Assembly: GCA_963799775.1 (NCBI GenBank)
Contig: CAWCYD010000003.1
Span: 1,824,001 to 1,888,000 of the forward strand
DNA: 64,000 nt
From: an uncultured archaeon
GTDB taxonomy: Archaea > Thermoproteota > Nitrososphaeria > Nitrososphaerales > Gagatemarchaeaceae
Reading direction: 5' to 3'
The notes beneath the pieces are model-generated. The model did not search any database, was not told the origin of the DNA, and was given only the letters and a program-made list of their open reading frames with translations. The position numbers were made by a program, and so were the translations under genes. Shown here piece after piece: positions 31,466 to 63,858 of the stretch (position 1 is the first letter of the stretch; every line of letters begins with the position of its first letter).

Positions 31466-35529
<4,064 letters not shown>

Positions 35530-37746: not shown

Positions 37747-39244
<1,498 letters not shown>

Positions 39245-43274: not shown

Positions 43275-43560
43275 ACTCCCAAGAAGAGTGTTCCATCAGC
43301 ACATCCTTTCTCCGCAAGGGGAGGGGAGAGCTGTGGAGAGCGGCGATAGAAGATCGCGTTGAAGGGGTGGGGGTGTACGCTGGAAGCCCGCAAGGGCGAC
43401 CAGTTCAGCCCGTCCACTACCTATAGCTCAACGTGTGAATGAAATGCCCCGGCGGAGGCGCAATGAACCCTTTATGCACGGCGAATGCCCTGCATTTTCA
43501 ACAAGCTAGCGAGAGCTTTCGCACGGAATAATAGGTGCCCCGGTTATTCCTGCATCGAAG

Positions 43561-44223
43561 TTGAAGGCAAAGACGAGCGCCTACGTAGTTGCCCAAGCTC
43601 TTGCCGTCGTCATCGTATTGGTGCTGATCTCCCTTCCCCTGGAGGCCCCGAATTCACATGAAGCTCCGACTTCCTCCACATCTAGCCAACAACTGACGTT
43701 AACTGCCTCCAGCTGCACTTCGACCTCTACCACGGTCGAGAGAGTGCTGCCGGTCAGTTCTGAAGCACAGCTGCTTTCTGTGGTAAACGCCACCTTCTCA
43801 GACCATCTCTTGCATTTCACTTTGAGGGACACCTTCGATGTCACTAATGACTTTGAGAACGGGGCGCAAATGGTCTGGGCCGGGAACACTGAGGGCTTTG
43901 GAGGAAATTACACTGGGCTGCGGTCCATCAACGAGGTCTACGAGGGATTCCTGGAGCCGACCACTGCTCTTTCGGTGATCAACGAGAGCTGGACTTTGGC
44001 GCCTATCGGGTCAGAATCGGTCGTGGTCTACTCGACTCTCGACTTCGAGGGGCACAACAACATTTGGGGAAGCTTTGACGCCCAAATCCTTGGAAGGGAC
44101 TACTATGTCGCCGCAAACGGATGGCAGATCTCCCAGGAGTCGTGGAACTTCACGAGGTTCGCCGTCCAGAACTCGCTCGAAGCTATGCCCTACGGCCCAG
44201 CTGGTGCCTCGTGTTACCAATGA
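43561..44223 (+). CDS. Cassette: membrane-anchored NTF2/SnoaL-like protein
   Basis: TM plus VWAG..GFGGNY...WQISQESWNF; related to 53890 and 46102. Confidence 0.65.
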   Translation: MKAKTSAYVVAQALAVVIVLVLISLPLEAPNSHEAPTSSTSSQQLTLTASSCTSTSTTVERVLPVSSEAQLLSVVNATFSDHLLHFTLRDTFDVTNDFENGAQMVWAGNTEGFGGNYTGLRSINEVYEGFLEPTTALSVINESWTLAPIGSESVVVYSTLDFEGHNNIWGSFDAQILGRDYYVAANGWQISQESWNFTRFAVQNSLEAMPYGPAGASCYQ

Positions 44224-44381
44224 GTGTCACCGTACTAACTCGCAAGCGAATTGCCCCCCGGCGGAGGGGCGATGAATCCTATGATTCGCGAAACCCATCA
44301 TTTCTTCGCAATTCAGCGAAACGAGGGCATTTCAGGCGGTTACGTCAAGTCGTCTTCCCGTTCAATCATGGGCCGAGGAAT

Positions 44382-44960
44382 CTAAAGTTCATCTGCAGTT
44401 GACATAGCCCGATTGGTAGTCGTTTCTGTTGAATCTTGAGGATACAAGGGATAAGGGAAGTGTTCCACATCCTCCGTACTTACTACGGCAAAGTCGATCC
44501 TTAGCAATCTACCTTTGAATCCCAATTGTGTCGCAACAGGCGTGAGAACAGTGTCGCTAACCTGTAGTTCAGATTGTGAAGCGAGAGCAAATCTTAGCTT
44601 CAGTAATCTACCCTCTCCGGCGTTAAGGAAGACTGGCACGCTTCCTTCTGTTGGACTTCCTTCGGCTCTTGTAATCACATCTCCCACTAAAGGAACAGTT
44701 GCGGTGACCTTAGTTACCGATGTTCCTCGACCTCCTCTGTTCTTGGCATAGAACTCAAGGTAAACAGATCTTTGAATACGACCTGACGTGTCAGGCTTCT
44801 CTTCGTAGTACCCCCACTTTGGAGTAATGCGCAAGTCGGGCCTCTGCGATTGATGGCTATCATAGAGGGCATATAGCGAAATAACCAGAGCTGATATTGC
44901 TACAATCAACTCGGCAACAGAGATGATGTCCATAGCCGTGCGCCGGTTTGATTGAGTCAA
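44382..44960 (-). CDS. Cassette: membrane-anchored hypothetical protein
   Basis: 192 aa, N-terminal TM. Confidence 0.65.
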   Translation of the reverse strand: MTQSNRRTAMDIISVAELIVAISALVISLYALYDSHQSQRPDLRITPKWGYYEEKPDTSGRIQRSVYLEFYAKNRGGRGTSVTKVTATVPLVGDVITRAEGSPTEGSVPVFLNAGEGRLLKLRFALASQSELQVSDTVLTPVATQLGFKGRLLRIDFAVVSTEDVEHFPYPLYPQDSTETTTNRAMSTADEL

Positions 44961-45095
44961 TTATCAGTTTCGTGTCGAGCGGGAGGCGCAATGAACCCAT
45001 ATGCATGGCAACAACTTGCCCATTTTATCGAGAGCTAGCGGAAGCTAGGACGTTCGGACAAATTCATTTATGGTTCGAGCCTTGCTTTCTCATCC

Positions 45096-46052
45096 ATGCG
45101 AGCGCGATTAAGCGAAATCGTCCTAGCTCTCGCGGGGGGCTTGTTCGGTCTCCTCCTTTACTTCATTTCTAGCGCCTTCCCTCGTCCAACGTTCGGCGGC
45201 GCCTCATTCTGGGGTTTCCCTCTAACATACGGGGTAACCGGCGGAACCTGCTTTGGTAACTGCTCTACCTTTACTCCCCAAGAGCCGGCTTTCGCGGCCG
45301 ACCTGGTTTTCTGGATTGCCGTGGGAGTTGTCACAGCCGAAGTTCTTGCTAGGAAGATACTGCCAAACAGAATGGATGAATCCTGGCCGTGGGCGAAAGA
45401 TCGAGAGACAATGGATGTCGAGTCCAAGTGGCCAGGAAAGGTGCTCTCGGTACTTCTTGTGGGCCTAATCATAGGAATGGCTTTCGCCTTCTTCGCAACG
45501 TCGACTGCAGGCGTCTTTGGTATGACCGCGACAGTCACCACGACGTCGACGGTGACAACTACGGCCCCTCCGGGTTCGAGCACCAGCGTTAACGCGCCCG
45601 ACGACGGGGTTGACCTCGAGGGATGTAGCCTGACCACCAAGACGTGCACTTTTCTGATACAGAATTTCGACCTGATGGACGGCTATGCCATTACACTAGG
45701 ACGGGACGGGATGTGTGTAACCGCGACCTACACATCGCCAACCTCTGTCAGTTCATTCGTCAACGAAGACGCGGGATGTACGACTCCTTCGAACTCGACT
45801 TACATCGCCAACAACGGCGCGACCACCGTAGTCACGGCGGTCTTCTCAGGGTGGTCACCAGGTGCAGGGTCGAACGAGCCGCCGACCGCCGGCCAATCCA
45901 TATGGGGATGCATCCTCTACACCTCAGGAGACGGATTTGGGTGTCTCGCGTTCACAGGGGTCTTCACTAATTCCGGCACCACATCTCAGGGCTATCTAAC
46001 GACAACTCAAGTGGTCACTTCGACCGTGACGGTCACAGCAACTTCTCCCTGA
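45096..46052 (+). CDS. Cassette: three-TM protein with a Cys/Thr-rich extracellular domain
   Basis: 318-aa ORF filling the inter-repeat space. Confidence 0.65.
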   Translation: MRARLSEIVLALAGGLFGLLLYFISSAFPRPTFGGASFWGFPLTYGVTGGTCFGNCSTFTPQEPAFAADLVFWIAVGVVTAEVLARKILPNRMDESWPWAKDRETMDVESKWPGKVLSVLLVGLIIGMAFAFFATSTAGVFGMTATVTTTSTVTTTAPPGSSTSVNAPDDGVDLEGCSLTTKTCTFLIQNFDLMDGYAITLGRDGMCVTATYTSPTSVSSFVNEDAGCTTPSNSTYIANNGATTVVTAVFSGWSPGAGSNEPPTAGQSIWGCILYTSGDGFGCLAFTGVFTNSGTTSQGYLTTTQVVTSTVTVTATSP

Positions 46053-46624
46053 CTCGTCTCAAATGGAAGGATGCCAGGCGGAGGCGCAATGAACCTAGTA
46101 GCTAACAGAGAGGAGTCTGGACATACCAATCCTGATAATCCCAGTTTTCCTTTAGGACATACCACTTCCCGTTGTCTCCCTGATTAGTCCACTGCTGCTG
46201 GACATTGGCGGTCTCGTTGGTCGCACCGAAGATCTCCCTTGTGCCTACAAACACGTAGCTGAAAGTGGCATTGATTGTTGCTGTTCCGATGTTCTTCAAC
46301 ACAATATTCGAGACGGTCACAACGGATGGAGAAGAGCCGAAGTCTTGGAACTCCGAACCGTAGAGCCCACGAATGTAGAACCGTTCTTCAGGGTACCTGC
46401 GTAGTCCCCGTTGAGTACGAGGTAGTTGCAGATCTCTTCCCTTCCATAAAGTTTGAGCTGGATTTGCGCGGTGTTCAAGGACGAGTGCAACGAGACAACG
46501 GACGAGTTCGTGTAGAAATCCATCATGGCGTCAATGTTCTTGTCTTCGATTGCTTGCTCCCACTGATTGAGTTGGAGCTGCACTCGCGACTTGGCTTGAG
46601 AGGAGGACGCAGCCGACGAGTAAG

Positions 46625-47810
46625 CAGTATCTCCGAATGACATAGGGTCACCTCCGTCAGGTTGCCAATGGGATTAGGAATGTGAGGAGGAGGGAGACCT
46701 TGACCTCCAATGCGATGATATGCTCTTCATCGTCGCGTCCGTCCTCTCCATTGTCGTTGCGCTCTGAAGAGTTCAGGATGCACCATGCGTTGTATAGGCA
46801 TACTGCCACCGCGTAGTAGAGTAGCCTAACCGTGAAGCTCTTCGATTTCGTCCTCGGAAGGAAGATGTTGTGCTCTCTGTAGGCGGTCTCCACTCCCCAA
46901 CGGGTCTTGTAACGCTTCAGCAGGCGCTTCGGCCTGCACGACATGTTCGTGGCGAAGAGGTAGCTGATCTTCGTCTCCTCGTCGTCGACCCTGACGAGCT
47001 TGAACGGTCTGTCGCAAGGATAGGAGACAGATTGACCGTCCTTGAGGTCGATCCTCTTCGTCAGCCGGTTGGGCGTGAAATGGATTGCATACAGGTATCC
47101 GTTCTCCTGGAGCCAAGAGGGGAGCTCGAGCGATGAGAACCCTCCATCGAAGAGGAGATACCTAACCCTGATTCCCATGTTCCTTATCCGGTTGAGGGCG
47201 TCCTCGATGTAATCCAAGAGATACTCCCTGCTCTTGATGGGCGTCAGGACGATCGTGAGCCTCCTCCCATCGGCGAGGATGCTCGCGGTGAGGTACTGGT
47301 AAGCGTAGCAAGAGCCGGCCTTTGGCCTCGTCCCGTTGACCATGTCGGTCTCATTATCGCCATAAAACATCTGGTCGTGCCAATCAAACGCAATCGGGAC
47401 CGGTCTCTTCAGCAACCCCTTTCTCTTCAGCTCGCCTACCTGCTCCTCGAGGACGATGGAGACGACGCTCTGGAGCTCGTATCTCTCGATGCTCTTGAAG
47501 CGCATAAGCGCGGTGTCGGAGTTCGGTACCCCGGCTCCAAACTTATTGGAGACGTTGCTCATTCCTTCCGCGTAGGCATTGAGTACAGACGAGTTGACAA
47601 GGAGACGGATATAGTCCGCCTTCGTGTACAAGTAGCTGGGCTTCACCTCGAAGCACAGTAGCTGGGGCAGGCATCGCATCATGACGGTATCGAAGCCTCT
47701 GGCTAGATGATTGGAGATCATAGCTGAGGCTTCGGGGTGAAGACTCCCTACGCCCCAAAATCATAACTTGTTGAGCGACGGCTAAAATCCGCACTCATTC
47801 GGAGATACTG
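46625..47810 (-). mobile_element. ISH3/IS4-like insertion sequence, 1186 bp
   Basis: Perfect 16-bp TIR CAGTATCTCCGAATGA / TCATTCGGAGATACTG; 4-bp TSD TAAG. Confidence 0.92.
46657..47721 (-). CDS. DDE transposase
   Basis: IAFDWH, LLFDGGF, YKTRWGVETAYR. Confidence 0.9.
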   Translation of the reverse strand: MISNHLARGFDTVMMRCLPQLLCFEVKPSYLYTKADYIRLLVNSSVLNAYAEGMSNVSNKFGAGVPNSDTALMRFKSIERYELQSVVSIVLEEQVGELKRKGLLKRPVPIAFDWHDQMFYGDNETDMVNGTRPKAGSCYAYQYLTASILADGRRLTIVLTPIKSREYLLDYIEDALNRIRNMGIRVRYLLFDGGFSSLELPSWLQENGYLYAIHFTPNRLTKRIDLKDGQSVSYPCDRPFKLVRVDDEETKISYLFATNMSCRPKRLLKRYKTRWGVETAYREHNIFLPRTKSKSFTVRLLYYAVAVCLYNAWCILNSSERNDNGEDGRDDEEHIIALEVKVSLLLTFLIPLAT

Positions 47811-48271
47811 TAAGAGACGTAGATGGCTGACGCGAGTACAACTAGGACGATTACGAGTGCGACCCTCACTAGACACTTGAGGCCGACACCAGTTCTTGCA
47901 GGCTGCACCGGGTGTTGGTATCGCACAAATATTTACGAGTTGTGAGGACGGTCGCTTGCTCTCGCCCTTCACAATGGTTATCCGATGTCGTGGCTCGCTA
48001 GCTTCTCAGGTGGCTTGGGTTGGCATTGGCAGACGAACGCGGTTAACTTGGTGGCCGACTATTTTTTCTGGCTTGAGATGTCTGCCGCAGGACTTTTCTC
48101 TGTCATCCTTCTGCAACGCAAGAGAAATGTCGAACTCCACACACTGAACAGCTGAGAGCTACCTTGCGGGAGGCGCAATGAACCCCTATGTGCGGCGACT
48201 GCTTTTCTCCGGCTCGGCAAGACTCGACGTTCGGACAAAGGCATTTATCGAGCAACGTCATTCACAAAATC

Positions 48272-48553
48272 ATGAAGAGATGGCCGAAGACCGTGCTTGT
48301 CCTTGCCGCAGTAATCGGCCTCACATTTCTGGTTCTTCTTCTCCCTTTGCTGCCTTTCACTGAAGGCTTTGGGTGCGCGGGAGCGGTGATCATTGGGTGC
48401 GCCCCTGATCACGCATCGGCGAGCTTCTACCTCTTTGGGTCCGGATACCTGTCCACACCTCACGGCGCGAACTCCTATTACTCGTGGTGCACAGCGAATC
48501 CTGGAGGGGGCGGGTTCACGTGCCGCAACGGCGCGTTCCAGGTCCCCTGGTAG
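48272..48553 (+). CDS. Cassette: small secreted Cys-containing protein
   Basis: Signal peptide; TATA-like motif about 27 nt upstream. Confidence 0.55.
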   Translation: MKRWPKTVLVLAAVIGLTFLVLLLPLLPFTEGFGCAGAVIIGCAPDHASASFYLFGSGYLSTPHGANSYYSWCTANPGGGGFTCRNGAFQVPW

Positions 48554-48699
48554 CCAAACACGAGAAGTCCACAGCATGCGCCCGGCAGGCGCAATGAACC
48601 CTTATGCATGGCGAATGCCCTGCATTCTTGTCAAACCTAGCGGAAGCTGGAATGCTCGGACAAAACGATTAATGAGGCCAACCCATCCAAGCATTCAGT

Positions 48700-49283
48700 T
48701 TGGCACGTCAGAGGCCTGCCTTCAGTCCACCCATTGTCTTCGTGGCGGTGGTTGTAGCCGTAGTCTTGGCGATCGCTCTCGCTGACTTCGCTACCGGGCC
48801 TATGCCAGTCTCTTCTGGTTCGTCGGCTGCTCCCTCTATTGGCGGAACGAAGGAAACAACGACAGTGACAGTTACTGGTGGCCTTGGCACCGCAGCGGCC
48901 ACGGCGCTGAACGGCGCAACCTACTACATGGACAACGTGACGAGCATAATGTGGGCCGAAGACCCGGGCACCTTCCACTTCAACAACAGATCCATCACCT
49001 TCCATGGGGTAACGTTCCAGACGATCTGCACGGCACAGTTCAGCGACTGTCCGGCGTTCCTCCTCCCACTCCAGGGGTCACCTACGCCGTTGCATCGGGT
49101 GCCGGAATAACCTTGAACGTCACGTTCTCTGACCACATCAGCGAGATCATTTCAGGAGGTTTCCCATTAGTGCCTGTCCGCTTTTCCGCATACTCTCATC
49201 ATACAGACCCCCAGGCTGGAATCCTGATCGTCTATACCAGCTCCAACCCCGAATACAAATCCTACCTGCTTGTGTCAGTTTAA
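48700..49283 (+). CDS. Cassette: membrane-anchored protein (frameshift near 49060)
   Basis: Two overlapping frames join into one plausible protein. Confidence 0.55.
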
Positions 49284-49392
49284 CATCACAAACCCGCAAG
49301 CCTCCCCGCCGGAGGCGCAATGAACCCTGTGTGTGGCGACAAGCCTCTTAACCCGACAATCCTTTAATCGACGCCTTCGATAACAGAATTGC

Positions 49393-49713
49393 TTGCCCAG
49401 GCCGTTGAACCTGGTAAAATGGGCGCCGTTGTGTGCAAGCTCAGTTCAAGATCTGCCTGAGGGCGAACGCAACAAGAAGATCAAATCCATGAAATCGGTG
49501 CTGGAGGAACGCAAGGATGCGGGAGACCACGTTCCAAGAGGCCTCTGGCCGCGAGACAAGGCGTATGATGGGATCACGAACCTTTACAGGTATGAAATCG
49601 ACAGGGAGATGAGAGCGACCTACACCATCGGCAGAATAGACGGCAAGTGGGTGGTCACGGTGATCGAGGTCTTCTGGAACCACAAGAGCTACGAAAGAAG
49701 GTTTGGATACTGA
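49393..49713 (+). CDS. Cassette: RelE-like toxin candidate
   Basis: LYRYEIDREMRATYTI...HKSYERRFGY. Confidence 0.55.
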   Translation: MPRPLNLVKWAPLCASSVQDLPEGERNKKIKSMKSVLEERKDAGDHVPRGLWPRDKAYDGITNLYRYEIDREMRATYTIGRIDGKWVVTVIEVFWNHKSYERRFGY

Positions 49714-49719
49714 ACCTGG

Positions 49720-50010
49720 CTACTTGATTACTACCGACGAATCGAAGAGCGCCTTGAGCTTCGGGTTGTCGGCAGCCACCCATACAATCCTCCCATGTCT
49801 GTCGATGAAGACTTTGCCAGTCGTTACCAGGATCTCTAGCGCGTTCTCGAAGGCCGCAGTGGTCGTATCCGGGGGCAACACCTTGCGCAGTTCGGTCTTT
49901 GTCGGCGGTAGGTCAGACCCTTTTATCGTCCTCTCAATCAATATCAACAGCGAACGGTCGGAAGCCGCGGCGCGACCATCACGTTCCCGGGGCCGAGGAG
50001 TCAAGGTCAT
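49720..50010 (-). CDS. Cassette: small wHTH-like protein, possible antitoxin
   Basis: TKTELRKVLP..FENALEILVTTGKV; convergent with the previous gene. Confidence 0.5.
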   Translation of the reverse strand: MTLTPRPRERDGRAAASDRSLLILIERTIKGSDLPPTKTELRKVLPPDTTTAAFENALEILVTTGKVFIDRHGRIVWVAADNPKLKALFDSSVVIK

Positions 50011-50065
50011 AAGACGAGGCCTGAGATGTCATACGTTTTCATGTTATTAAACGTGGATACCATTG

Positions 50066-50157
50066 CGCTGGAAGCCTTTCGGGCGACCAGTTCAGCCCGT
50101 CCACTACCTATAGCTCAACGTGCGGATGAAATGCCCCGGCGGAGGCGCAACGAACCC
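50066..50157 (+). repeat. Long repeat copy: 23S 3' end plus BHB arm
   Basis: Near-identical to 43378-43470. Confidence 0.92.
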
Positions 50158-50175
50158 AAGCAGGGCGAAACTATG

Positions 50176-50571
50176 TCAGTGAGCTTCTAGGATCGTCTGC
50201 TTGGCCCGTTCGTCGAAGGTCACAAGAAATCTTTCGAAGACGGCCCTTCTTCCGAGGAGACTGAGAGGCAGCCTGTGGCTCGCGGTGAACGCAACCTCAG
50301 CTTCAAACTCCTCGTTCCCTATCTTCAATCTGATTCTGTGGAGGTAGGCGTTTATCGTGCCGCCGATACCAGAAGGTCTGATCCGCTCGCCGCGGTCGAT
50401 GGTCAGTCCCAGGACTCTCCCAATCTGCCCGTCGAAGAGGCTTACGCTCGCGCCCGAGTCGACCAGCGCCTCCGAGGCCACCCACGGACCATCAGAGAGT
50501 CGCAACTCAAGTGGGATTATTGGAAAGTTGGAACCCCTAAAGGGCACGTATCCGAACTCGTATTTCGTCAA
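50176..50571 (-). CDS. Cassette: retropepsin-like aspartyl protease
   Basis: ALVDSGAS, GIGG, LLGR. Confidence 0.85.
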   Translation of the reverse strand: MTKYEFGYVPFRGSNFPIIPLELRLSDGPWVASEALVDSGASVSLFDGQIGRVLGLTIDRGERIRPSGIGGTINAYLHRIRLKIGNEEFEAEVAFTASHRLPLSLLGRRAVFERFLVTFDERAKQTILEAH

Positions 50572-50792
50572 AGAATCAGGAGTTCTTCATCCTTCTTGGG
50601 GACGTAGAGCACCAGGGGCACTTGCTTTGGATGGATCCTCGTCGCTTTCTTGTGTGCCTCGCCGAAGCTCTTGCCATCAGCGACTATCTTCCTGTCAAAT
50701 ACGGCGATCCATCGCCCAGAGTGCTTCTCCGCCTCGGCGTGGTGCTTGACCAGCCATTCGTGCTCCTCCTTCAAGGAAGCCATGCTCGGCAA
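50568..50792 (-). CDS. Cassette: DUF5678-like small protein
   Basis: HSGRWIAV...IVADG; overlaps the protease gene. Confidence 0.7.
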   Translation of the reverse strand: MPSMASLKEEHEWLVKHHAEAEKHSGRWIAVFDRKIVADGKSFGEAHKKATRIHPKQVPLVLYVPKKDEELLIL

Positions 50793-50950
50793 CTAGATTC
50801 CACCAAGTAATATTACTTTTGAGGCCTCGGGGCAGGAGAATTTCGGCGACCCAACTCGGCCCACTGCCTTCAGCTGCATTTCATAGAAGCTAGCGAGAGC
50901 TTGAACCGTCATCCGAATGAGTTAGAAGACAGTCTCGTGTCGCTTTCTTC

Positions 50951-51637: not shown

Positions 51638-51761
51638 GCCCGGCGGAGGCGCAATGAACCGCTACCGCGCACGGTCTCAACGAGTCAGCGAGAACCGGAC
51701 CTGACCACCGAACGAGGTAAGAACAGGCTGCTCTCACGCGGTTGCCAGCTTTAGGGCTGAT

Positions 51762-52535: not shown

Positions 52536-52693
52536 TTGCGAATAGTCTGGCTCCAAGACTGACCGCAGCCTCGGCGGAGGCGCAATGAACCCATATGCAT
52601 GGCACATGCCCTGCAACTTTGTTTTGACAAGGCCCAGCGGAGACTGTAGCGTTCGGGCAAACCGATTTTAAGGACTCAGGACACATTCTCTAC

Positions 52694-54534: not shown

Positions 54535-54633
54535 GCCGGAGGCGCAATGAACCCTATACACGGCGAATGTCCTTCAGGTCCATCCAGTCGCTTTCAGGAA
54601 GTTTCATAAACGAGGCAGACATTGCCGAGTCCC

Positions 54634-54917: not shown

Positions 54918-54963
54918 CTACGCCCGGCGGAGGCGCAATGAACCTATGCATAACGACAATCAC

Positions 54964-55500: not shown

Positions 55501-55669
55501 CGAGAGGCGTTCCCGGCTGCGTCCTAATGATGTTTGAGGCGCAATGAACCCTGTGTATGGCGCAAGCCCTTCTACTTCATTTTAGAGAAAGCCTAGCGGA
55601 GCTCGCGCACTACGAGACCTATTCTATCAGGTTCAATAGGGAGCGCACACGTTTCATCCTTGAGGCGCT

Positions 55670-56897
55670 ATGAGGAGCGCAGTCGTCGCAGCGGTTGTCA
55701 TAGTCTTGGTCGCAGCGAGTCTGGGAGTTGGCTACCAACTCGGCAACCAAGCCCAACGCACCGAGACGCTAAACTCGACATCCACTCAGACTATCATCTC
55801 TATCAGCACCTCGACTTCGACGTCCACTCTGACCAGCACCTCTACCTCCTTCGTCAGCGTAGCTAGCGGTCAGCCCATTCCGGTCACGAGCGTCGAGACC
55901 GCGAACATAACCATCGGACAATCTCCTGATCCCTATGCCGAGTCAATCGCGGTCAATCCCAACACCAACAGAGTCTACGTCGTTGACGGGTCTACTCTGA
56001 CCGTCCTAGACGCGGCGTCGCACGCAGCGATCGCGAACGTCACGCTGCCAGCGAGCGGCACTGGAGGAATCGCCGTCGACAACCCCACAGGCATCGTGTT
56101 CGTCTCGGTCGAGTTCTTCAACGACGGGGCACCCGTAAAAGGGGAGGTCGCCGAGATCAATGGCTCCACGAACGCAATCGTGCGCGAGCTTCCGCTCGAC
56201 TCCCCCCTAGGCGCGCTCGCGTACGACCCATCCACCCACGTCCTTTACGGCTCCGCAGGGGGAAACCCGGGTTCCCGCAGGCCATAATGGCAGTCTCCTG
56301 GGCGTCGACGTCCAGACGGGCTCTATGGTGTCAAACGTGTCGCTTGGTTTCAGGGCCTTTAACCTGGCAGTCAATCCCATGACAAACATGGTGTATGCCG
56401 ACGGGTGCGACCAGTTTGGTCTTGCCTGCGACGCGGTCGTGTCAATGGTCAACGGGACGAGCCGTAGCCTGGTCACAACCGTTCACCTGAACTCGGCGTA
56501 CTCCACGACCATGACCGCGAACCCGGCGACGAACATAGTTTACGCTTCTGGAGCAAGGGAGCTCGTCGCCCTCAATGGGACCAACGGGGGCACGATCTTC
56601 AAGGTGGACCCTTACACTTGCGGCCCCTTCCTCGGCATGGCCGTAGTTCCTTCGGCGAACCAGGTCATCATGGTCCCGCAGAACTACGACTACCTGCTGG
56701 TGTACGACGGAACGTCCGGAGCCCTGCTCACCATGTATTCGCTCCCGAGCTTGCCGCAATCGGTTGCCTACAACCCCAGCACCAACGAATTCTACGTGAC
56801 GACCTCGGGGCATCTCCTGGCCTTCCCCGACCTGGACTTCGTGGGCGACGCGAACCCTTCACTGATTGGTTCGAATGACACATGCCTGCCGGTCTAG
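55670..56897 (+). CDS. Cassette: YVTN/YncE-like beta-propeller (frameshift near 56260)
   Basis: Repeated AVNPxTNxVYV motifs. Confidence 0.75.
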
Positions 56898-57062
56898 TCC
56901 CCGCATCCCCGCGAGAGGACGGCGTCGGTTTGCAACATGCATGCCCCGGCGGAGGCGCAATGAACCCCTATGCATGGCGACATGCCCGCATTTTTAGAAA
57001 CTGAGCGCGAGCCAGGACTCCTCCACACGCTTAATTACGTCTAATGTCCGCAATCGCCAGCC

Positions 57063-57302
57063 ATGGCCAGAGCAGAGCAGAAATACCTCATCGATCGGGA
57101 GACGTTGGAACACCTGCTCGCGATGCTCAGAGACGGAGTCGCCAAAGGCGCCAGCGACAAGGAAATCAGAGAGCAGACTCTAGAAATCCTCGACCCCTAC
57201 TATCGGGCCAAGGTCGATCGTGCCCTCAAAGAAGCGTCAGAAGGAAAGGTAAGGCGCTTCAAGAACGCGGAAGAGATGATTCGCGACCTTCACTCGCGCT
57301 GA
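57063..57302 (+). CDS. Cassette: antitoxin
   Basis: ALKEASEGKVRRFKNAEEMIRDL, upstream of RelE. Confidence 0.7.
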   Translation: MARAEQKYLIDRETLEHLLAMLRDGVAKGASDKEIREQTLEILDPYYRAKVDRALKEASEGKVRRFKNAEEMIRDLHSR

Positions 57303-57308
57303 CGGCAC

Positions 57309-57569
57309 TTGCCCTGGTCGCCAGAGTATACTCCGACATTCAGACGAGACTACAAGAACCTAGATTCACAGAATCAGCGAAGGGTTGACGACGCAATCAG
57401 GGATATCGTCAACGCCGATGAGCCTAGGTCTCTCGGTCGCCCGAAACTTGGTAAGTGGGCGGGAGCGTTTGGTTATGATGTCGGCCGTTCCATCAGGATC
57501 CTCTACTCGGTCAATCAGCCATACCACCTCGTGGTATTCTTGCGGTGCGGCCGCCATGACATTTACTGA
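57309..57569 (+). CDS. Cassette: RelE/ParE toxin
   Basis: YTPTFRRDYKNL...IRILY...GRHDIY. Confidence 0.85.
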   Translation: MPWSPEYTPTFRRDYKNLDSQNQRRVDDAIRDIVNADEPRSLGRPKLGKWAGAFGYDVGRSIRILYSVNQPYHLVVFLRCGRHDIY

Positions 57570-57574
57570 TTATT

Positions 57575-57650
57575 GGCGACCAGTTCAGCCCGTCCACTAC
57601 CTATAGCTCGACGTGTGGATGAAATGCCCCGGCGGAGGCGCAATGAAACC
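57575..57650 (+). repeat. Long repeat copy: 23S 3' end plus BHB arm
   Basis: GGCGACCAGTTCAGCCCGTCCACTACCTATAGCTC...GGCGCAATGAA. Confidence 0.92.
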
Positions 57651-57719
57651 ACCTGAGTGGCTCGATCTCTGGCGCTTCACCCGCGGTTCCTTCGCAGACG
57701 CTCAGCCTCGCTTGGTTCT

Positions 57720-58130
57720 TCAGCCTTCTGTCTCCATCAACACCGCTTCTTCCATCTCTTCGAGAAACAGCACCCGGACGCCCCGAGCTTTGAAGAACCG
57801 GCGGAAATCACCCTCCGCGGTTTCCTTTGGATGGCTTGCATACGCCACCGCGTGCTGCACCTTGAGATCGCGAACGTCCTCCGCCTTTCTTGCTCTCATG
57901 AGGTGCTCCACATCCCTTGTCCAGTCCTCTGCGGCTCCGGCCCGCTCCCTGCATGAAACTACCATCATGACCTTGCCCTTCACACCGGCGACCTCGGTGG
58001 CAGCCTTGTGACCGGGGTGCTTGAGCGGATGCGGCGCCTCGATTTCAGTCAGGCTGTATCCTTCTACGATCGTCAGGTAATCCTTGACGAGCTCCTCAAG
58101 ATAATCGCCGAGCTCCTCCGCCACAGGCAA
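57720..58130 (-). CDS. Cassette: hypothetical protein
   Basis: 136-aa ORF filling the inter-repeat space. Confidence 0.55.
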   Translation of the reverse strand: MPVAEELGDYLEELVKDYLTIVEGYSLTEIEAPHPLKHPGHKAATEVAGVKGKVMMVVSCRERAGAAEDWTRDVEHLMRARKAEDVRDLKVQHAVAYASHPKETAEGDFRRFFKARGVRVLFLEEMEEAVLMETEG

Positions 58131-58271
58131 CTGAAATCGACCGTGCCGACTTAGCTTTACCTACTCCGCGTGAACGCGCGGATGAGAATGCCCCGGCGGA
58201 GGCGGAACGAGCCCTCATGCATGGCGAAACACCCTTAGCAATGCGAGCCGGTTGCTGTCGTCTGAGATGGA

Positions 58272-59150
58272 GTGCGTCGAGTCCTAGCAATTGGAATCAT
58301 CTTGATTCTTCTCTGCGGTGCAGCTGGTTACATCGCTTTCCTGGAGCTTCAAACTTCTACTGCATCTAGTACGACAGCCGTCAGTAGCCTCACTAGTAAT
58401 TCCACAGCCCCTTCATCCTCCGAGTCCACAACTCCACAGAATGCAACACTGATCAGGGCCGTCGACTATCTCATCGACGGCTACAACCCTGACGTGGGGC
58501 TGATACCGGAAACTCCCGGCTCCTCCACCTACTGGCTCTACAGCGACAACTTTCTCGCTGCGCAAGCTCTGCTGCAGTACGGCAAGTCGAACAACACGGT
58601 GTTCGACATAGGGCAGAACATCTCGAAGACCCTGCAGAGGGATTCCGCGGGCATAGGCGCAGAGAACCAGTACGCGATGGCCCTCGGGGAAGGACCATGT
58701 CAATTCCACAGCGCCGTCGACTACAATGTGTCCTCATCAGGGGGCATCCAAATCAGGACGACCCTTAACAACGAGGCAGGGAATCTCTCTGCAAACCAGT
58801 ACGCAGACATCGCGTTCCTAACTGCAATCTGCCTTCATACAAACCAGCCCCAGGCGTTGGCGGAGTACGATGTCGGGCAGGGAATGTTCGATGGCATCGG
58901 GCTCAGGGACTTGCCCTACAACCAGTCGGAGCTCTACCAGACCTACAAACTGGCCCTCTACATCTACGCCAGCGATATCCTAAGCCAGCCAGTAAACCAG
59001 ACCGCCCTGGCCACGCTCATCAGGATGCAGGCCCCGAACGGAGGATTTTACACTGGATATGACCCAACCTATTCACCGGCAGGGACGCTCACAAACACGG
59101 AGACGACGAGCCTTGCCATCCTCGCTCTTTACAACTACTTGCAGAAGTGA
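58272..59150 (+). CDS. Cassette: secreted, probably alpha-helical barrel protein
   Basis: TM, YWLYSDNFLA, QAPNGGF..Y, NTETTSLA; stop codon lies within the repeat. Confidence 0.7.
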   Translation: MRRVLAIGIILILLCGAAGYIAFLELQTSTASSTTAVSSLTSNSTAPSSSESTTPQNATLIRAVDYLIDGYNPDVGLIPETPGSSTYWLYSDNFLAAQALLQYGKSNNTVFDIGQNISKTLQRDSAGIGAENQYAMALGEGPCQFHSAVDYNVSSSGGIQIRTTLNNEAGNLSANQYADIAFLTAICLHTNQPQALAEYDVGQGMFDGIGLRDLPYNQSELYQTYKLALYIYASDILSQPVNQTALATLIRMQAPNGGFYTGYDPTYSPAGTLTNTETTSLAILALYNYLQK

Positions 59151-59226
59151 AATGCCCCGGCGGAGGCGCAATTGACCCTGCGCAGGAAGCATCATCTTAA
59201 ATACACATACGTGCACATAATAATCA

Positions 59227-59463
59227 ATGGCCCACAAGACGATAACAATCTCAGACGACGCGTACGAGGCGCTCGCCAAATCAAAGAGAGAGAACGAGTC
59301 TTTCACCAAGGTCATACTGCGACTGACCTCTGACAAGAAAAAGGCCGCCAGGTTCTTGGAATATGTGATGAACTCTCCACCTGACGAGGAGCTCGCTCGA
59401 AGCGTCGAGAGGGCAATGGAGAAGACCCGGAAGGCGCGCCTCAAGCCCGCGAATCTGGGCTGA
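59227..59463 (+). CDS. vapB: Cassette: VapB antitoxin
   Basis: KTITISDDAYEAL...ESFTKVILRL. Confidence 0.85.
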   Translation: MAHKTITISDDAYEALAKSKRENESFTKVILRLTSDKKKAARFLEYVMNSPPDEELARSVERAMEKTRKARLKPANLG

Positions 59464-59470
59464 GCGACCT

Positions 59471-59866
59471 ATGGTGTGCCTAGACACTTCGGTGGTCGTC
59501 GCCATACTCCGAAAAGACCGAGCGGCGACTGAGAGGCTGAGGTCAGAGGTGGAAGGCGGGGGAACGTTCTCCACCACAGTGGTCACTCTGTGCGAGCTCT
59601 ACTCCGGCGCGTTTAGGGCCAGTGACCCGCAGAAAGAGGTGAAGAAAATACAAGAGTTGCTCACGAACCTGGAGGTCCTCGGGCTGGAAGAAGGTGCTGC
59701 GAGACGGTATGGGGAGCTGGTTAACGACGGGACTCTCAAGAGAGCGCCCATCGGAGACTTTGACCTGGTAATCGCCTCGATCGCCTTGGAGCAGGGAGAA
59801 AAACTGGTTACCCGCAATCTCAAGCATTTCAGCAGGGTCCCTGGACTGGTCACGGAGCAGTGGTGA
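59471..59866 (+). CDS. vapC: Cassette: VapC PIN toxin
   Basis: CLDTS, EL..G, FDLVIASIAL, TRNLKHF. Confidence 0.92.
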   Translation: MVCLDTSVVVAILRKDRAATERLRSEVEGGGTFSTTVVTLCELYSGAFRASDPQKEVKKIQELLTNLEVLGLEEGAARRYGELVNDGTLKRAPIGDFDLVIASIALEQGEKLVTRNLKHFSRVPGLVTEQW

Positions 59867-59900
59867 TCTCCGACTTCATCTTTCTTCGCGAGGGAGCGGC

Positions 59901-59986
59901 GAAGCCTTCGGGCCACCGGTTCAGCCCGTCCACTACCTATAGCTCAACGTGCGGATGAAATGCCCCGGCGGAGGCGCAATGAACCC
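59901..59986 (+). repeat. Long repeat copy with a UUCG tetraloop variant
   Basis: GAAGCC-TTCG-GGC...CCCGTCCACTACCTATAGCTCAACG...GAACCC. Confidence 0.92.
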
Positions 59987-60018
59987 TTCATGAACGGCAA
60001 AAACCTTTCAGCAAGAAT

Positions 60019-60618
60019 CTAGGGAACTAGGGTCTCCGTCGAGTTCACGGTAAGCTGAAGCGAAGTGTCCTCCACTGCATTCGGGATTGCTATGATTAGC
60101 GACATGCCGGCACGAGACCACGTGGTCGTTGGCTGCGAGTTGATGTAGACCTCAAAGCCGGGTTGTGGGAACAAACCTTCTGTCCCCCCCGAGACCGTAA
60201 GGTTACGACCCTGTGCGGCAACTGCGGAACTGATTGTGAAATTCACTGTCCAGACGTTCGAGTATGAGATGATGTGCCCCACCCCTCCGCCGCACATCGT
60301 CCCGCAAGCCGTTGGCGTGTCTGTGTAGGAATAGAAATAGGAACAGGTCGAACCGCTGAGGGGAAGGGTTGGGTTGAAGCTGACTTCAATGGATTCATTG
60401 GTCCCGCCGCTGACGCTGACCAGAGTCTGCAGGGAGTCCTGCGAAGGCGGCGGATTCGACACGACGCAGCCGTAATCAACGACACTCTTGCTTGGGGGTG
60501 GAACTGAAGGGCCAGCGGGCGACACGAACAGAGGAAAGATCACAAGGTCGAGGGCAAGAACAGACGCTATCGCAAGGGCGAGGATTGCGGCGTAACCGAG
60601 AGTGTTTCGACTTGGCAA
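60019..60618 (-). CDS. Cassette: membrane-anchored protein
   Basis: N-terminal TM, 199 aa. Confidence 0.65.
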   Translation of the reverse strand: MPSRNTLGYAAILALAIASVLALDLVIFPLFVSPAGPSVPPPSKSVVDYGCVVSNPPPSQDSLQTLVSVSGGTNESIEVSFNPTLPLSGSTCSYFYSYTDTPTACGTMCGGGVGHIISYSNVWTVNFTISSAVAAQGRNLTVSGGTEGLFPQPGFEVYINSQPTTTWSRAGMSLIIAIPNAVEDTSLQLTVNSTETLVP

Positions 60619-60800
60619 AGGCCCAAGACGCTACGGGTAAACTGCACCGGCGCGGTAAATAGCTTTGTCCGAACGTCACCGCAATGAACCCAAATGCACG
60701 GCGAATGCCCTGCGTACTTTCATTTTAGCAGAGCCTAGCGGAGGCTGGAACGTTCGGACAAATCCTTAATCGAAACCTTACGCTTGCGGACTACTGAACG

Positions 60801-61542
60801 GTGCAATTGAGGAGCGCATTTGTGGTAGCAATCGTCCTGATCCTAGTCGCTGCCAGCTTGGGCGCGGGCTACGCTGTCGGCAATTCGACCAAGGGCATAG
60901 AGACTGAAACCTCGACGGTAGTCTCCACCGCCACGCTAACAAAGGTGTCGACATCCACTGCAACGACAACGGTCAGCAGCGTATCGACGCAATCTTTCAC
61001 ACAGACCATCCCCTCGGACTGTCTCGTCAGCAATGTGTCGGGCTACTCGTTCGGCACCATCGCCATTGGGACAACCTCTCCCGCGATAGTCTGCGTCCAG
61101 CTCTATGAATTCAACGCCACCTCGACGGCCGTCCTGGACCCGGCCAGTCTCATCACCATCTATGGCGACGAGATTTCCAACGCCACTTCGAACTTCACAA
61201 TCACAGCAAGCGCCAGTAACATCGACCTGGGAGGTGCCTGCGTACTCGAATGAAGGAATCATTGTGGAATTCCACATTACGGCCAAACCAGGAATCAGCG
61301 GCACGTACTGGTTCCAGATACAACACGCGTGGTACCTTGAGGGTGCCGGAGCGACAGAAGCGGGCCCGAACGGCGTGCTGGTGGCCGGAACGGGCCAGCC
61401 AGACTATGTGCCTTCCACCTCCACCATATTGCCCTTGGAAGTAGGCTGCACCTCGCCGTTCAACGTACCCGGAGTAGGATCCAGCATCTGCGCAAGCGTC
61501 CTGTATTACCGAATCACCGACGTGACAAACTCAACGCAGTAG
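60801..61542 (+). CDS. Cassette: membrane-anchored protein (frameshift near 61235)
   Basis: N-terminus (RSAFVVAIVLILVAASLGAGY) closely matches that of 55670. Confidence 0.6.
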
Positions 61543-61635
61543 GCTAGGCGGAGGCGCAATGAACCCAATGTGGGGCTGTCGAGCAGAACGAGACGCGTTT
61601 CTCCTTTTATATCGCCGGCCGCTGTTGTATCTGGC

Positions 61636-61921
61636 ATGGAAGTGACGCAGAAGGAGTTGGAAAAGGCGATGAAGGAAATCGACAAGAAACTAGCTCTTCC
61701 AGACGAGAAGTTCGAAAAGTACGCGAGTGACCTTCTTGAGCGCGCGGTCAAGGGACTACGAAGAAGCCGCTAAGCTGTATCAGTTCCTCTCCAGACTAGA
61801 GCACGTTCAGGTGAGAAGAGCCTTGCAGGCTTCTAGGCTCGCGCCTGACGAACTGGGGAACGAACTCGTCGTCCTCGCTGCGATTATGGAAATCAGAGAC
61901 CGCATAGGAGAGCCAACGTAG
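61636..61921 (+). CDS. Cassette: two overlapping small ORFs (61636-61773, 61727-61921)
   Basis: Same architecture as 54634-54917. Confidence 0.45.
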
Positions 61922-61992
61922 CGACCAGTTCTAGTGCGCTACCTGTAGCTCAACGTGTGAGTGAAATGCCCCGGCGGAGGCGCAATGAACCC
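61921..61992 (+). repeat. Long repeat copy (degenerate)
   Basis: GCGACCAGTTC...CTACCTGTAGCTCAACGTGTGAGTGAAATGCCCC...GAACCC. Confidence 0.88.
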
Positions 61993-62054
61993 TGTGTATG
62001 GCGAACGTCACGATCTTGAACTCCTGCAAAGAGATGGATTCCCGCAGGACTTTC

Positions 62055-63206
62055 TCAAGGAACTTGTTCCAGAAAGCTGTTGTTGTTCTCTCCAATCATG
62101 ACCCGGCCTCCATCCTGATAGGGAACGACTATGAGGTTGGTGGCTGATTCCCCTGTGTAGCCAAACGTGTAGAGCGACGGATACGACTCAAGCTGGTTCG
62201 CTGAATCCATGTAGAGCAATGCCAGAGTCGAGTTCATCTCGAGGAACCTAGTCGTTTGTCCGCAACAGTACGCTGCCCAAACCAGATCAGAGTCATACGA
62301 TTCGATATTCCCTATCTGTTGACCCCACGGCCAGAGCGTAGGTTTCACGACTATTGATGCAGACGTGACGTTTCGGATTGGGATGTGGACAATGCCGAAT
62401 GTGTCGTTGTTAGCCGCAAACGTTCCGTTGCCGAACGGGTTGTCAGACATCCTGATCTCTATCCCGGCATTGTAGACGTCGACTGAAGTGGTGAGCCGCA
62501 CATCCAGTGGGAGCGAGTAGTTTGACGTAGAGCCAAGGAACGAACCGAAGGCATAAGTTGTCTTTCCGTTCAATTCTCCATTCCGACCGTTTCCGTACGA
62601 ATCCAGAGTGACGTTCGCATTACTCCCGGTCTCGTTGAAGATGAGGCCATCGAAGTCCCTGACCTCTTGTGTAGTTGTATTCGCGAAGGGCACCACGTTT
62701 TGCGCCCAGAACAACTCGCTCCCATGGGCCGTGGTAACGACCACGTTCACGTTCATTTGGAGGCTTGCGCATTGCGTACACGCCAATACCGAGTAGGTTG
62801 GAGCTATGGAGTAGTCCCAATTTGTAGAAGCTGAGAGCGCGCTGATATCGGCCTGCCCAACGACCTCTGTTGTGTTTATGGAATACGATTGTAGCGACCC
62901 TGAATAGTTGTAGACGCCATACGAGGCTATCCCAATGGGGGATGCTTCGGTCGGGCGATTGAGAAGGTATTCAAATTGTGAGCTGTCTAGAAATTGTCCC
63001 CAATCGAAAGCCTGGGAAGACCCGGTGGCAGTCGTCGGAGACGACGTAGAACTGGTCGGAGTTACAGCAGTCCTGGTCAACATACTTGATTCGAGAGAGA
63101 CGCCGATAAGAAGAGCAATCAAGCCTGCTACGACGGTAACCATGACCGCCGACCGAGAGACAGCGTGTCTTCGCTTCAAGATCATTATTGCAGGCCCAGG
63201 GACCAA
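62055..63206 (-). CDS. Cassette: thermopsin-family protease
   Basis: PIGIASYG, SLQMNVNV, FWAQNV, TGESA. Confidence 0.78.
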   Translation of the reverse strand: MVPGPAIMILKRRHAVSRSAVMVTVVAGLIALLIGVSLESSMLTRTAVTPTSSTSSPTTATGSSQAFDWGQFLDSSQFEYLLNRPTEASPIGIASYGVYNYSGSLQSYSINTTEVVGQADISALSASTNWDYSIAPTYSVLACTQCASLQMNVNVVVTTAHGSELFWAQNVVPFANTTTQEVRDFDGLIFNETGSNANVTLDSYGNGRNGELNGKTTYAFGSFLGSTSNYSLPLDVRLTTSVDVYNAGIEIRMSDNPFGNGTFAANNDTFGIVHIPIRNVTSASIVVKPTLWPWGQQIGNIESYDSDLVWAAYCCGQTTRFLEMNSTLALLYMDSANQLESYPSLYTFGYTGESATNLIVVPYQDGGRVMIGENNNSFLEQVP

Positions 63207-63304
63207 GGCGAAGCCAGCATTTTAATCGAGAGTCTATGGATTACTGGGCCCCGGTGGAGGCGCAATGAACCCCATGCGCGGCAACTAAATCCCCAAATGC
63301 TAGG

Positions 63305-63739
63305 TTGATTCTTCGCTGGCTTGTGGAGTCTCTACGCTACCCCTCGGTATCCGATGTGGTCGAGGTGAACAGGAGGGTCACAAAACTAACAGAAGATGAA
63401 CATCACATCGACGAGTATGATAGAGAGCGATTATCCAAGTTACTCGACGAGGTTCAGAACATCGGCAACTCCATCAGAAACCCGAGGCAGAGGATCATAG
63501 CCAAGTCGTCTTACCTGCTCTACTGCATTGCCGCTCGACAATTCTTTCACGAAGGAAACAAGAGAACAGCGTACACCGTCACCATGACGTTCTTGATTCT
63601 GAACGGCTACTCCATGCCTTCTAGAGATCCCAAGCGAGAAAAGATGCTCGACCTGATAGCCATGGGCCACCCAAGCATAACATTATTAGAGTTGGAGAAG
63701 CTAATGAGAAAACTGGTAACCAAGAGGGAGAACCCATGA
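63305..63739 (+). CDS. Cassette: Fic/Doc-family protein
   Basis: QFFHEGNKRTA (the motif His is replaced by Gln), FLILNGY. Confidence 0.8.
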   Translation: MILRWLVESLRYPSVSDVVEVNRRVTKLTEDEHHIDEYDRERLSKLLDEVQNIGNSIRNPRQRIIAKSSYLLYCIAARQFFHEGNKRTAYTVTMTFLILNGYSMPSRDPKREKMLDLIAMGHPSITLLELEKLMRKLVTKRENP

Positions 63740-63858
63740 GCAAGACAAGCCAAGAGATCAAGGTACCCAGGACTGACACTGAATTTGTCCGCCTAGCCAA
63801 GCAAGTAATCGCAAAAGAGAGGGACTATCTCATCTACATCGGCTCTGAGAAGCGCTAG
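63736..63858 (+). CDS. Small ORF coupled to the Doc gene, possible antitoxin
   Basis: ATGA overlap, 40 aa. Confidence 0.45.
   Translation: MSKTSQEIKVPRTDTEFVRLAKQVIAKERDYLIYIGSEKR

Follow-up and report, generated by a model that had tools for sequence, protein, structure and literature searches.

The window examined in this study is a stretch of 64,000 nucleotides (nt) from an uncultured archaeon of the family Gagatemarchaeaceae (assembly GCA_963799775.1, contig CAWCYD010000003.1, positions 1,824,001-1,888,000 of the forward strand), in which the ribosomal RNA (rRNA) operon is followed by a long array of short direct repeats, here termed units, that separate small gene cassettes. The source genome is labelled G000, the window being G000:C3:1824001-1888000, and other G numbers denote the genomes of relatives. 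G000 comprises 2.47 Mb in three contigs with a G+C content of 59%, is 81.7% complete and has this rRNA operon as its sole one, with a single 23S gene. An earlier interpretation made from the letters alone (the sequence-only reading) had described the array as an integron-like gene-capture platform that uses the rRNA 3' spacer as its attachment site.

The core of the repeat, GAGGCGCAATGAACCC, was matched 21 times at two mismatches or fewer, on every occasion on the plus strand (window 43455-63272); 0.07 matches were expected from shuffled sequences, and none of 100 shuffles reached 21. Units were counted using a profile built from core copies (nhmmer), which returned exactly the number that had been read by eye from the 23S end toward the window edge, namely 24 (window 43427-63299), all on the plus strand, together with two units upstream of the operon (Table 1). 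The first of the 24 begins within the final bases of the 23S rRNA gene. The array extends past the window edge and contains 48 units in 44.5 kb (G000:C3:1867427-1911964), all on the plus strand, with a solitary distal unit beyond it at G000:C3:1921241. In total, 73 units were found in G000, including smaller same-strand clusters at C3:122621-126271, 373182-373919, 1355572-1361943, 1608631-1618756 and 1767040-1768678 and lone units at C3:1387670 and C2:172309.

The 48 intervals have a median length of 820 bp and a range of 391-2243 bp, apart from one of 9312 bp, and each holds one to three open reading frames (ORFs) of at least 55 amino acids (aa). One interval is 2089 bp long because a transposase of an insertion sequence (IS) has been inserted in its cassette. 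As the sequence-only reading had noted, the genes lie in either orientation: in the 24 intervals that start in the window, the ORFs were on the plus strand only in 15, on the minus strand only in seven and on both strands in two. A Pfam family was found for seven of 30 window ORFs tested (DDE transposase, Asp-protease-like, DUF5678, VapB, PIN, thermopsin and Fic), and the other 23 had none. The statement of the sequence-only reading that the cargo consists of toxin-antitoxin (TA) modules and of surface or secreted proteins agrees with the VapB and PIN pair and with the hydrophobic N-termini that a crude count gave for many cargo ORFs. The inverted cassette at 50176-50792 has homologous DNA, approximately 68% identical, in the array of G007. 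No other Rfam family was detected in the array at gathering thresholds, and near the small arrays only one transfer RNA (tRNA) was detected.

Several observations concern the array beyond the window edge and one of the smaller arrays. A cassette at G000:C3:1909434-1910894 (L003:1434-2894) encodes a protein of the FtsZ/tubulin family in which the GTPase domain is separated from the C-terminal domain by an inserted winged helix-turn-helix domain. The stretch from the final unit of the main array to the solitary unit (G000:C3:1912000-1921200, in L003) contains defence-type genes for an AIPR abortive-infection protein and a Schlafen-group-3-like helicase, and distal to these are a GNAT gene and then a thermosome gene. 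The latter was tried as a synteny marker for the far end of the array and was unusable owing to its many paralogues. An intron-containing tRNA-Val gene (G000:C3:1362956-1363051, minus strand) precedes the four-unit array at 1355572-1361943 (minus strand), approximately 1 kb upstream of its first unit.

Table 1. Features of the rRNA operon and of the cassette array, in window coordinates.
Feature	Position	Strand	Evidence
Left-half-only unit, upstream of rRNA operon	18951..18989	+	profile
Unit upstream of rRNA operon, 23S-like left arm	19495..19564	+	profile
16S rRNA gene	37747..39244	+	Rfam RF01959, 1474 bits
Predicted 23S processing stem, 5' strand, pairs with trailer (unit 1)	39435..39477	+	sequence complementarity, cofold
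23S rRNA gene, sole copy in genome	39478..43442	+	Rfam RF02540
Group I intron within 23S	41517-41772	+	Rfam RF00028, 77.5 bits
Cassette array, window part; continues to G000:C3:1911964 (= window 87964)	43427..64000	+	profile
Unit 1, 23S 3' end and trailer, core 43455-43470; proposed primary attachment site	43427..43505	+	
Unit 2	44255..44312	+	nhmmer E 6e-6
Unit 3	44963..45035	+	profile
Unit 4	46055..46096	+	profile
IS transposase DDE_Tnp_1, inserted in cassette	46657..47721	-	PF01609, E 1.5e-7
Unit 5	48152..48210	+	profile
Unit 6	48585..48635	+	profile
Unit 7	49302..49358	+	profile
Unit 8, ~77 nt 23S-3'-end-like sequence left of core	50114..50187	+	profile
Inverted two-gene cassette: Asp-protease-like (131 aa) and DUF5678 protein (74 aa)	50176..50792	-	Pfam
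Unit 9	51633..51660	+	profile
Unit 10	52567..52626	+	profile
Unit 11	53360..53407	+	profile
Unit 12	53755..53817	+	profile
Unit 13	54528..54592	+	profile
Unit 14	54908..54974	+	profile
Unit 15	55536..55584	+	profile
Duplicated cassette, ORFs of 205 and 190 aa	55536..56967	+	second copy in small array
Unit 16	56928..57000	+	profile
Unit 17, ~60 nt 23S-like left arm	57607..57669	+	profile
Unit 18	58185..58237	+	profile
Unit 19	59138..59205	+	profile
VapB antitoxin and PIN (VapC) toxin cassette	59227..59866	+	PF02697 E 4e-17, PF01850 E 6e-18
Unit 20, ~61 nt 23S-like left arm	59943..60012	+	profile
Unit 21, right-half-only: consensus begins at CGCAATGAACCC, left half replaced	60680..60719	+	
Unit 22	61530..61576	+	profile
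Unit 23, ~59 nt diverged 23S-like left arm	61949..62023	+	profile
Thermopsin-family protease cassette, inverted	62055..63206	-	PF05317, E 2e-36
Unit 24	63242..63299	+	profile
Fic/DOC-family cassette gene	63305..63739	+	PF02661, E 1.8e-5

The nature of the repeat is apparent from the flanks of the 23S gene. The 5' flank is complementary to the trailer, and cofolding of the two gave -71.6 kcal/mol, compared with -42.3 +/- 3.0 kcal/mol for 200 shuffled trailers. Among eight genomes of the genus the 5' strand is nearly invariant, and comparison of G000 with G011 shows a single G:C to A:T change, present on both strands of the stem. The predicted fold is a long helix of the 23S flanks with a central bulged region, as in archaeal rRNA processing stems, although this region only resembles a bulge-helix-bulge (BHB) and is not the canonical 3-4-3 motif. 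In 194 aligned units the conserved columns extend from CCCCGGCGG to GGC(G/A), via AGGCGCAAT, GAACCC and TATGCAYGGC, and the consensus of the stem strand is CCCCGGCGG-AGGCGCAAT-GAACCC-TT-TATGCAYGGC. The ~40 nt that are conserved in each unit constitute the 3' strand of this predicted 23S processing stem, and most copies are still able to pair with the 23S 5' flank (median of -56.6 kcal/mol versus -42.3 kcal/mol for shuffles).

The sequences on either side of the core are more variable. To the left, many units carry sequence resembling the 3' end of 23S rRNA, which is 26-30 nt long in some, approximately 60 nt in several and up to 85 nt, and which has diverged from the real 23S gene. The units share 40 nt of homology and a subset share 100 nt or more. 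A small hairpin and a T-run usually come 3' of the stem strand, and in several units GTTCGGACAAA and a TATA-like element are found approximately 25-30 nt ahead of the next start codon; in unit 3, for example, the right arm runs into GTTCGGACAAA and a TATA-like ATTTAT approximately 30 nt before the ATG at 45096. The stem strand, the 23S-like arms of up to 85 nt and the smaller arrays, one of which lies beside a tyrosine recombinase, go beyond what the sequence-only reading had noticed.

The position of the array beside the 23S gene is maintained in relatives. At one mismatch or fewer, the core was present in 19 of 22 genomes of the same genus, in two of two other genera of the family and in none of 16 other families of the order; reversed patterns, used as a control, gave zero or one match. 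Eight genomes (G000, G001, G007, G011, G014, G017, G018 and G021) had an assembled 23S 3' end together with DNA beyond it, the contig of G020 being uninformative as it stops inside the 23S gene. In all eight, a unit abuts the 23S gene and is followed by a same-strand array. Within 80 kb of the 23S gene there were 41 units in G007, 50 in G014 and 55 in G021, and within 20 kb there were 16 in G011, ten in G017 and 14 in G018. The right arm of the first unit varies between species. Furthermore, at least 120 stretches were listed in a scan of metagenomes with a 20-mer, and the 80 of these that were analysed contained 170 units, in a single orientation in 46 of 47 multi-unit loci. The 23S end was present on 11 of the 80 contigs, and in all 11 the homology to G000 ends inside unit 1, at C3:1867471-1867493 (window 43471-43493). 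The proposal that the rRNA 3' spacer serves as the anchor is upheld by both sets of data.

The exceptional multi-unit locus among those analysed is L124 (a metagenome contig of 9754 nt), which bears a unit in the opposite orientation (8865-8818) as well as homologues of the final cassette in the G000 array and of a gene beyond that array; this contig may show the distal end of an array.

The cassettes behave independently of one another. In a comparison of 220 units from five genomes, homology was found between the left flanks of 42 pairs and between the right flanks of 38, and the sole pair that was homologous on both sides is a local tandem duplication; left and right flanks assort independently. 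In an inverted two-gene TA-like cassette common to G000, G007 and G014, the homologous stretch runs from the left core (its right half) as far as GAGGCGCA in the right core and includes the 23S-like right-side arm, and the left-side arm is different in each of the three genomes. The cassette at 55536-56967 has a copy in a small array at G000:C3:1355628-1357165 (minus strand; 92.7% identity over 1440 nt), and the homology begins in the left core and ends just past the right core. Few cassettes are shared between species; those that are have 66-94% identity and lie in a non-collinear order, and gene content differs almost wholly. Content and order are accordingly not fixed among relatives, the reverse of the pattern that the sequence-only reading had said would count against it.

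The region of exchange was delimited by comparing 31 left-flank and 37 right-flank pairs with 3984 random pairs, after exclusion of the tandem-duplication pair and of pairs formed among the five first units that adjoin the 23S gene. Excess identity extended up to core position ~7 in left-flank pairs and from position ~8 in right-flank pairs, against a background identity of 0.8-0.97 in the core and ~0.3 in the flanking repeat. In addition, 11 of 431 units, a count that leaves out units too near contig ends, consist of the left half only, ending at GAGGCGCA(AT) and continuing into unrelated DNA, and two consist of the right half only, starting at CGCAATG or GATGAACCC. Together, the switch in flank identity and the breakpoints of the half-units place the exchange within ~8 nt, GCGCAATG.

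At least eight tyrosine-recombinase genes are present in G000. None was found inside the window, in agreement with the sequence-only reading, which had pointed to the distal end of the array and to co-occurring genes as places to look for a recombinase or a reverse transcriptase. No recombinase was seen in the arrays searched, and reverse transcriptase (PF00078) and serine recombinase (PF00239) each gave 0 matches in G000, at 81.7% completeness. The distributions of three integrase types were compared with that of the arrays, and none follows it: the int4 type occurs in ten of 22 genomes of the genus and also in four other families, int5 occurs in eight of the 22, and the int2 type is widespread, with many paralogues.

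The best candidate for an enzyme acting in trans, put forward tentatively, is the tyrosine recombinase of a module consisting of a tRNA, an integrase gene (int) and a DnaJ-domain gene. It has ~350 aa and a C-terminal zinc ribbon (C3:121051-122097) and is followed by the DnaJ-domain gene; the int-DnaJ block stops approximately 20 nt short of a unit and is followed by a three-unit array (small-array region C3:120904-126271). The block is followed by a unit in six cases (G000, G011, G017, G020 and two records of metagenome-assembled genomes, MAGs), the copies being 91-94% identical in DNA and ending at the unit, and the cassettes that come after it are different in G000 and L035.

Some details of this locus were noted by eye. 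In each of the two zinc-ribbon recombinase paralogues of G000, the frame of the N-terminal ~75-120 aa differs from that of the catalytic part, and an identical extra G stands at the junction (L001:4763-5131 and 5052-6098; L006:4440-4760); the cause could be a programmed shift, a defect common to both or an overlap of two genes. Directly upstream of int-DnaJ is a long-intron tRNA-like gene that neither ARAGORN nor Rfam called (L001:4633-4752; G000:C3:120632-120751). ARAGORN found only 18 tRNAs in G000, many of ~95 nt, and intron-bearing tRNAs are probably under-called.

Taken together, these observations indicate that the array is probably a cassette platform of a non-integron kind whose primary attachment site is the 23S trailer. 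In the proposed mechanism, cassettes of 0.4-2.2 kb with one or two genes would be bounded by copies of the trailer site, and a trans-acting recombinase would exchange strands inside GCGCAATG. The left arm, CCCCGGCGGAGGCGCA, often with up to 85 nt of sequence like the 23S 3' end ahead of it, would travel with the upstream cassette, and the right arm, ATGAACCC-TTATGCAYGGCGA with a small hairpin, a T-run and often an element resembling a TATA box and the transcription factor B recognition element (BRE), would travel with the downstream cassette. Insertion at the primary site would then swap out the distal half of the rRNA trailer, and the incoming right arm would consequently have to pair with the 23S 5' flank; this need for continued pairing would account for the match between the conserved part of the unit and the stem strand. 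The entry point of new cassettes would be beside the 23S gene, with older ones distal to it. A gradient in the array fits this polarity and is suggestive: the share with homologues in relatives (at least 200 nt) was 0.10, 0.17, 0.29 and 0.40 in successive quarters from the proximal to the distal end. The anatomy of the array, its anchoring, the assortment and duplication of cassettes and the region of exchange are shown by the data, and the platform proposed in the sequence-only reading is supported except for the missing enzyme, no recombinase having been found in or beside the main arrays.

A number of points weigh against this interpretation. The main array of G000 has no recombinase gene within it or adjoining it, tblastn searches with five G000 integrases gave none within 80 kb downstream of the 23S gene in G007, G014 or G021, and no integrase was matched in the 80 metagenome loci. 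With regard to the candidate, the single-contig genome G007, with its 41 units, has no close int-DnaJ orthologue and only a 52% identical homologue beside tRNA-Leu; distant homologues occur in families that lack the core; and both int-DnaJ paralogues of G000 appear by eye to have a shifted N-terminal part. The site has none of the dyad symmetry that is usual for tyrosine-recombinase cores: a search of the consensus string, used in place of the exact stretch, for dyads of seven or more matches with a spacer of 7 nt or more found none. The polarity trend comes from one genome, with relatives unevenly sampled, and the BRE/TATA-like elements of the right arms, which may be cassette promoters, were recognized by eye only. 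Finally, the 23S-like sequence of the cassette left arms is left unexplained by simple core exchange because such exchange never moves the arm away from the gene; the arm may reflect a binding requirement of the recombinase or be a trace of cassette birth.

Some of these points would be accommodated if there were no dedicated recombinase, the units, of 40-130 nt, being kept for a function in RNA or transcription and the cassettes moving by homologous recombination between them. Such a process would agree with the lack of a recombinase in or beside the arrays, with the 40 nt (in a subset, 100 nt or more) of homology shared by the units, with the variable length of the 23S-like left arms and with a site that has no dyad symmetry. 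It nevertheless appears unlikely: the switch in flank identity is confined to the core, the core is much more conserved than the flanking repeat, and the breakpoints of the 13 half-units all fall in one stretch of ~8 nt, where unrelated DNA is joined on, a structure that does not arise by homologous recombination.

Quite unlikely, too, is an origin of the cassettes as miniature satellites of a virus or plasmid that integrates, with a helper integrase that targets the 23S 3' end and an array that is a graveyard of integrations. Use of the 3' end of a stable RNA and its reconstitution are typical of integrative elements, and according to the main texts of Krupovic et al. (2019; PMC6563490), on integrated elements of thaumarchaea, and Badel et al. 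(2021; PMC8371274), on archaeal tyrosine recombinases, in which the word 'rRNA' has 0 occurrences, elements at tRNA 3' ends form tandem arrays at one att site. Moreover, tyrosine recombinases of mobile elements beside tRNA genes are frequent in the genomes studied here. The resemblance lies in a site that overlaps the 3' end or trailer of a stable RNA, in incoming DNA that rebuilds the displaced part and in repeated use that leads to arrays. Such elements encode their own integrase and are flanked by att repeats that copy the 3' part of the target RNA gene. Repeats that copy up to 85 nt of the 23S end are present here, but no cassette of the arrays searched contains an integrase, the trailer is that of 23S rRNA, and units of 0.4-2 kb without an integrase stand dozens in a row. 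Exchange occurs downstream of the RNA gene and the RNA-like arm stays with the upstream cassette, so that the 23S-like arm is on the left of the cassette, the wrong side for exchange inside the 23S gene. No full-size element with the site was seen, and the 20-mer had 0 matches in viral_contigs; 11 matches of a 16-mer there were dismissed as chance because the flanks of the unit were absent.

It is very improbable that the units are RNA elements only, such as terminators, decoys for the stem or endonuclease sites, that were locally duplicated among genes that do not move. The unit is indeed a strand of the predicted stem, the majority of copies retain the ability to pair with the 23S 5' flank, and a hairpin and a T-run come after the core. 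However, flanks that assort independently across five genomes, species that retain the anchor and differ almost wholly in gene content and a cassette copied exactly from unit to unit into another array all speak for mobility.

Sedentary chromosomal integrons, of which the Vibrio superintegron is an example, are built from the integrase IntI, a tyrosine recombinase with an extra domain of its own, and from the sites attI, beside intI, and attC, in which R'' and R' boxes enclose an imperfect hairpin of single-stranded DNA. That the array could be a canonical integron, or a cluster of attC sites lacking integron integrases (CALIN), with unusual attC sites is hardly credible. The layout does conform: at least two sites in the same orientation and less than 4 kb apart separate cassettes, and the array is long, with cassettes of 0.4-2 kb and a cargo of ORFans and TA pairs, some of them inverted. 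The cassette boundary falls within a conserved core and the larger part of the site is at the cassette's 3' end, the content is reshuffled among relatives and insertion apparently takes place at one anchored end. However, the R''/R' pair (RYYYAAC...GTTRRRY) was found in one of 51 units, compared with one of 500 control windows. Folding of the 51 units as single-stranded DNA gave a mean z of 0.00 (plus strand) and -0.10 (minus strand), with values below -2 in one of 51 and none of 51, respectively, and three units folded singly were no better than shuffles. The lack of attC ends that the sequence-only reading had reported is thereby confirmed. When int1, int2, int4 and int5 of G000 were scanned (81.7% complete genome; the paralogue int3 was left out), the best score was 55.5 bits with TIGR02249 (cut-off 265) and 26.1 bits with NF011946 (cut-off 435), and the recombinase beside the small array at C3:120904-126271 is not an IntI. 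Instead of an attI beside intI, the main array starts at the 23S trailer, with no recombinase in the window. The primary and cassette sites are mutually homologous, unlike those of integrons, and the cassettes would possess their own promoters. The logic is integron-like, and every molecular feature that defines an integron fails except the array itself. The main text of Ghaly et al. (2022; PMC9668308) reports integrons in archaeal MAGs, with IntI, attI and attC of the canonical kind and no more than 12 attCs per contig, compared with 48 units here, and does not mention rRNA; Data S1-S3 of that paper list archaeal genomes with attC clusters, among which a member of this genus could appear for other loci. 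Arrays at the 23S trailer are not described in the main texts of the literature searched (including PMC8813620 and PMC10640624), and integrons, integrases and mobile elements are not mentioned in the main text of the genomics paper on Gagatemarchaeaceae.

The chance of an assembly or binning artefact, to which repeats and a genome of three contigs at 81.7% completeness are prone, is practically negligible because the same architecture is present in eight independent genomes, one of them a single contig, and on 80 metagenome contigs. Direct repeats in one orientation are also a property of clustered regularly interspaced short palindromic repeats (CRISPR). These have repeats of 23-50 nt and spacers of 26-72 nt; the intervals here are 391-2243 bp long and contain ORFs, and there was no Rfam or CRISPR-type match, in line with the view of the sequence-only reading that the spacing is far too long for CRISPR. 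Ends of a miniature inverted-repeat transposable element (MITE) or of an IS, the former of which that reading had named as a possible refutation, were rejected because there are no inverted copies: within each cluster the units have the same orientation, and the core has no inverted partner in the array. The pdif modules, or arrays of integrative mobile elements exploiting Xer (IMEX), are small modules without a recombinase that have short conserved sites and often contain TA pairs, and here too movement would presumably depend on a recombinase supplied in trans. The dif-type sites are imperfect palindromes of 28 bp, the orientation of which alternates in pdif modules, whereas the sites of the present array are direct and lack dyad symmetry, and the XerA-like protein of G000 is unlinked to the arrays.

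A further reading, distinctly unlikely, is that the recombination site and the rRNA processing signal are identical and that recombination is coupled to processing. The exchange region (GCGCA|AT) corresponds in the predicted stem to an A-A-U bulge of the 3' strand beside a 4 bp GCGC helix, and this bulge would be the expected cut position of the splicing endonuclease. With coupling, selection would favour cassettes that restore a functional processing stem, and the 5' strand of the stem could pair with downstream units in read-through transcripts. The endonuclease and a ligase could then excise circles of 23S rRNA plus cassette and join the rRNA leader to distal cassettes, stored cassettes would be expressed or sampled at the RNA level from the rRNA promoter, and RNA might even guide the DNA exchange.

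To our knowledge, integrons, as defined by IntI and attC, are the only well understood platforms that stockpile and reshuffle single-gene cassettes. The same genomic logic, with an anchored array, shuffling between species and a boundary in a core, is found here in Thaumarchaeota of soil and peat without IntI or attC. The high G+C content and the soil or peat labels hint at Group I.1c, a lineage that does not oxidize ammonia. If a cassette platform at the 23S trailer is indeed the explanation, cassette-based gene capture would have evolved at least twice, and the rRNA trailer, besides tRNA genes, would be a long-lived attachment site. There would also be a new pair of recombinase and site for archaeal genetics and a large pool of mobile archaeal genes, which could readily be mined since each match of the 20-mer in soil metagenomes marks a cassette boundary. 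The question is raised of how the cell tolerates the constant rewriting of the 3' flank of its sole 23S gene.

Some minor features of the operon and its surroundings were also recorded. The 23S gene is 3965 nt long compared with a model of 2987 positions, which points to an insert of ~1 kb, and the 23S genes of relatives are 3667 to 5144 nt long. The rRNA operon and array lie 70-130 kb past the maximum of the cumulative GC skew of G000:C3 (near 1.78 Mb, with a minimum near 0.50 Mb), and this position is uninformative. The upstream neighbours of the operon are housekeeping genes or have no Pfam family; an ORF of 407 aa at window 35533-36756 looks, by eye, like a HhH-type DNA glycosylase. A 101 nt tRNA at window 2692-2792 (minus strand; Rfam, 45 bits) was missed by ARAGORN, presumably because it bears an intron. 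The β subunit of a 2-oxoacid:ferredoxin oxidoreductase (window 33454-35529, plus strand) contains an intein with a LAGLIDADG endonuclease domain, as judged from Pfam matches to Intein_splicing and LAGLIDADG_3 between the parts of the thiamine pyrophosphate (TPP) enzyme.

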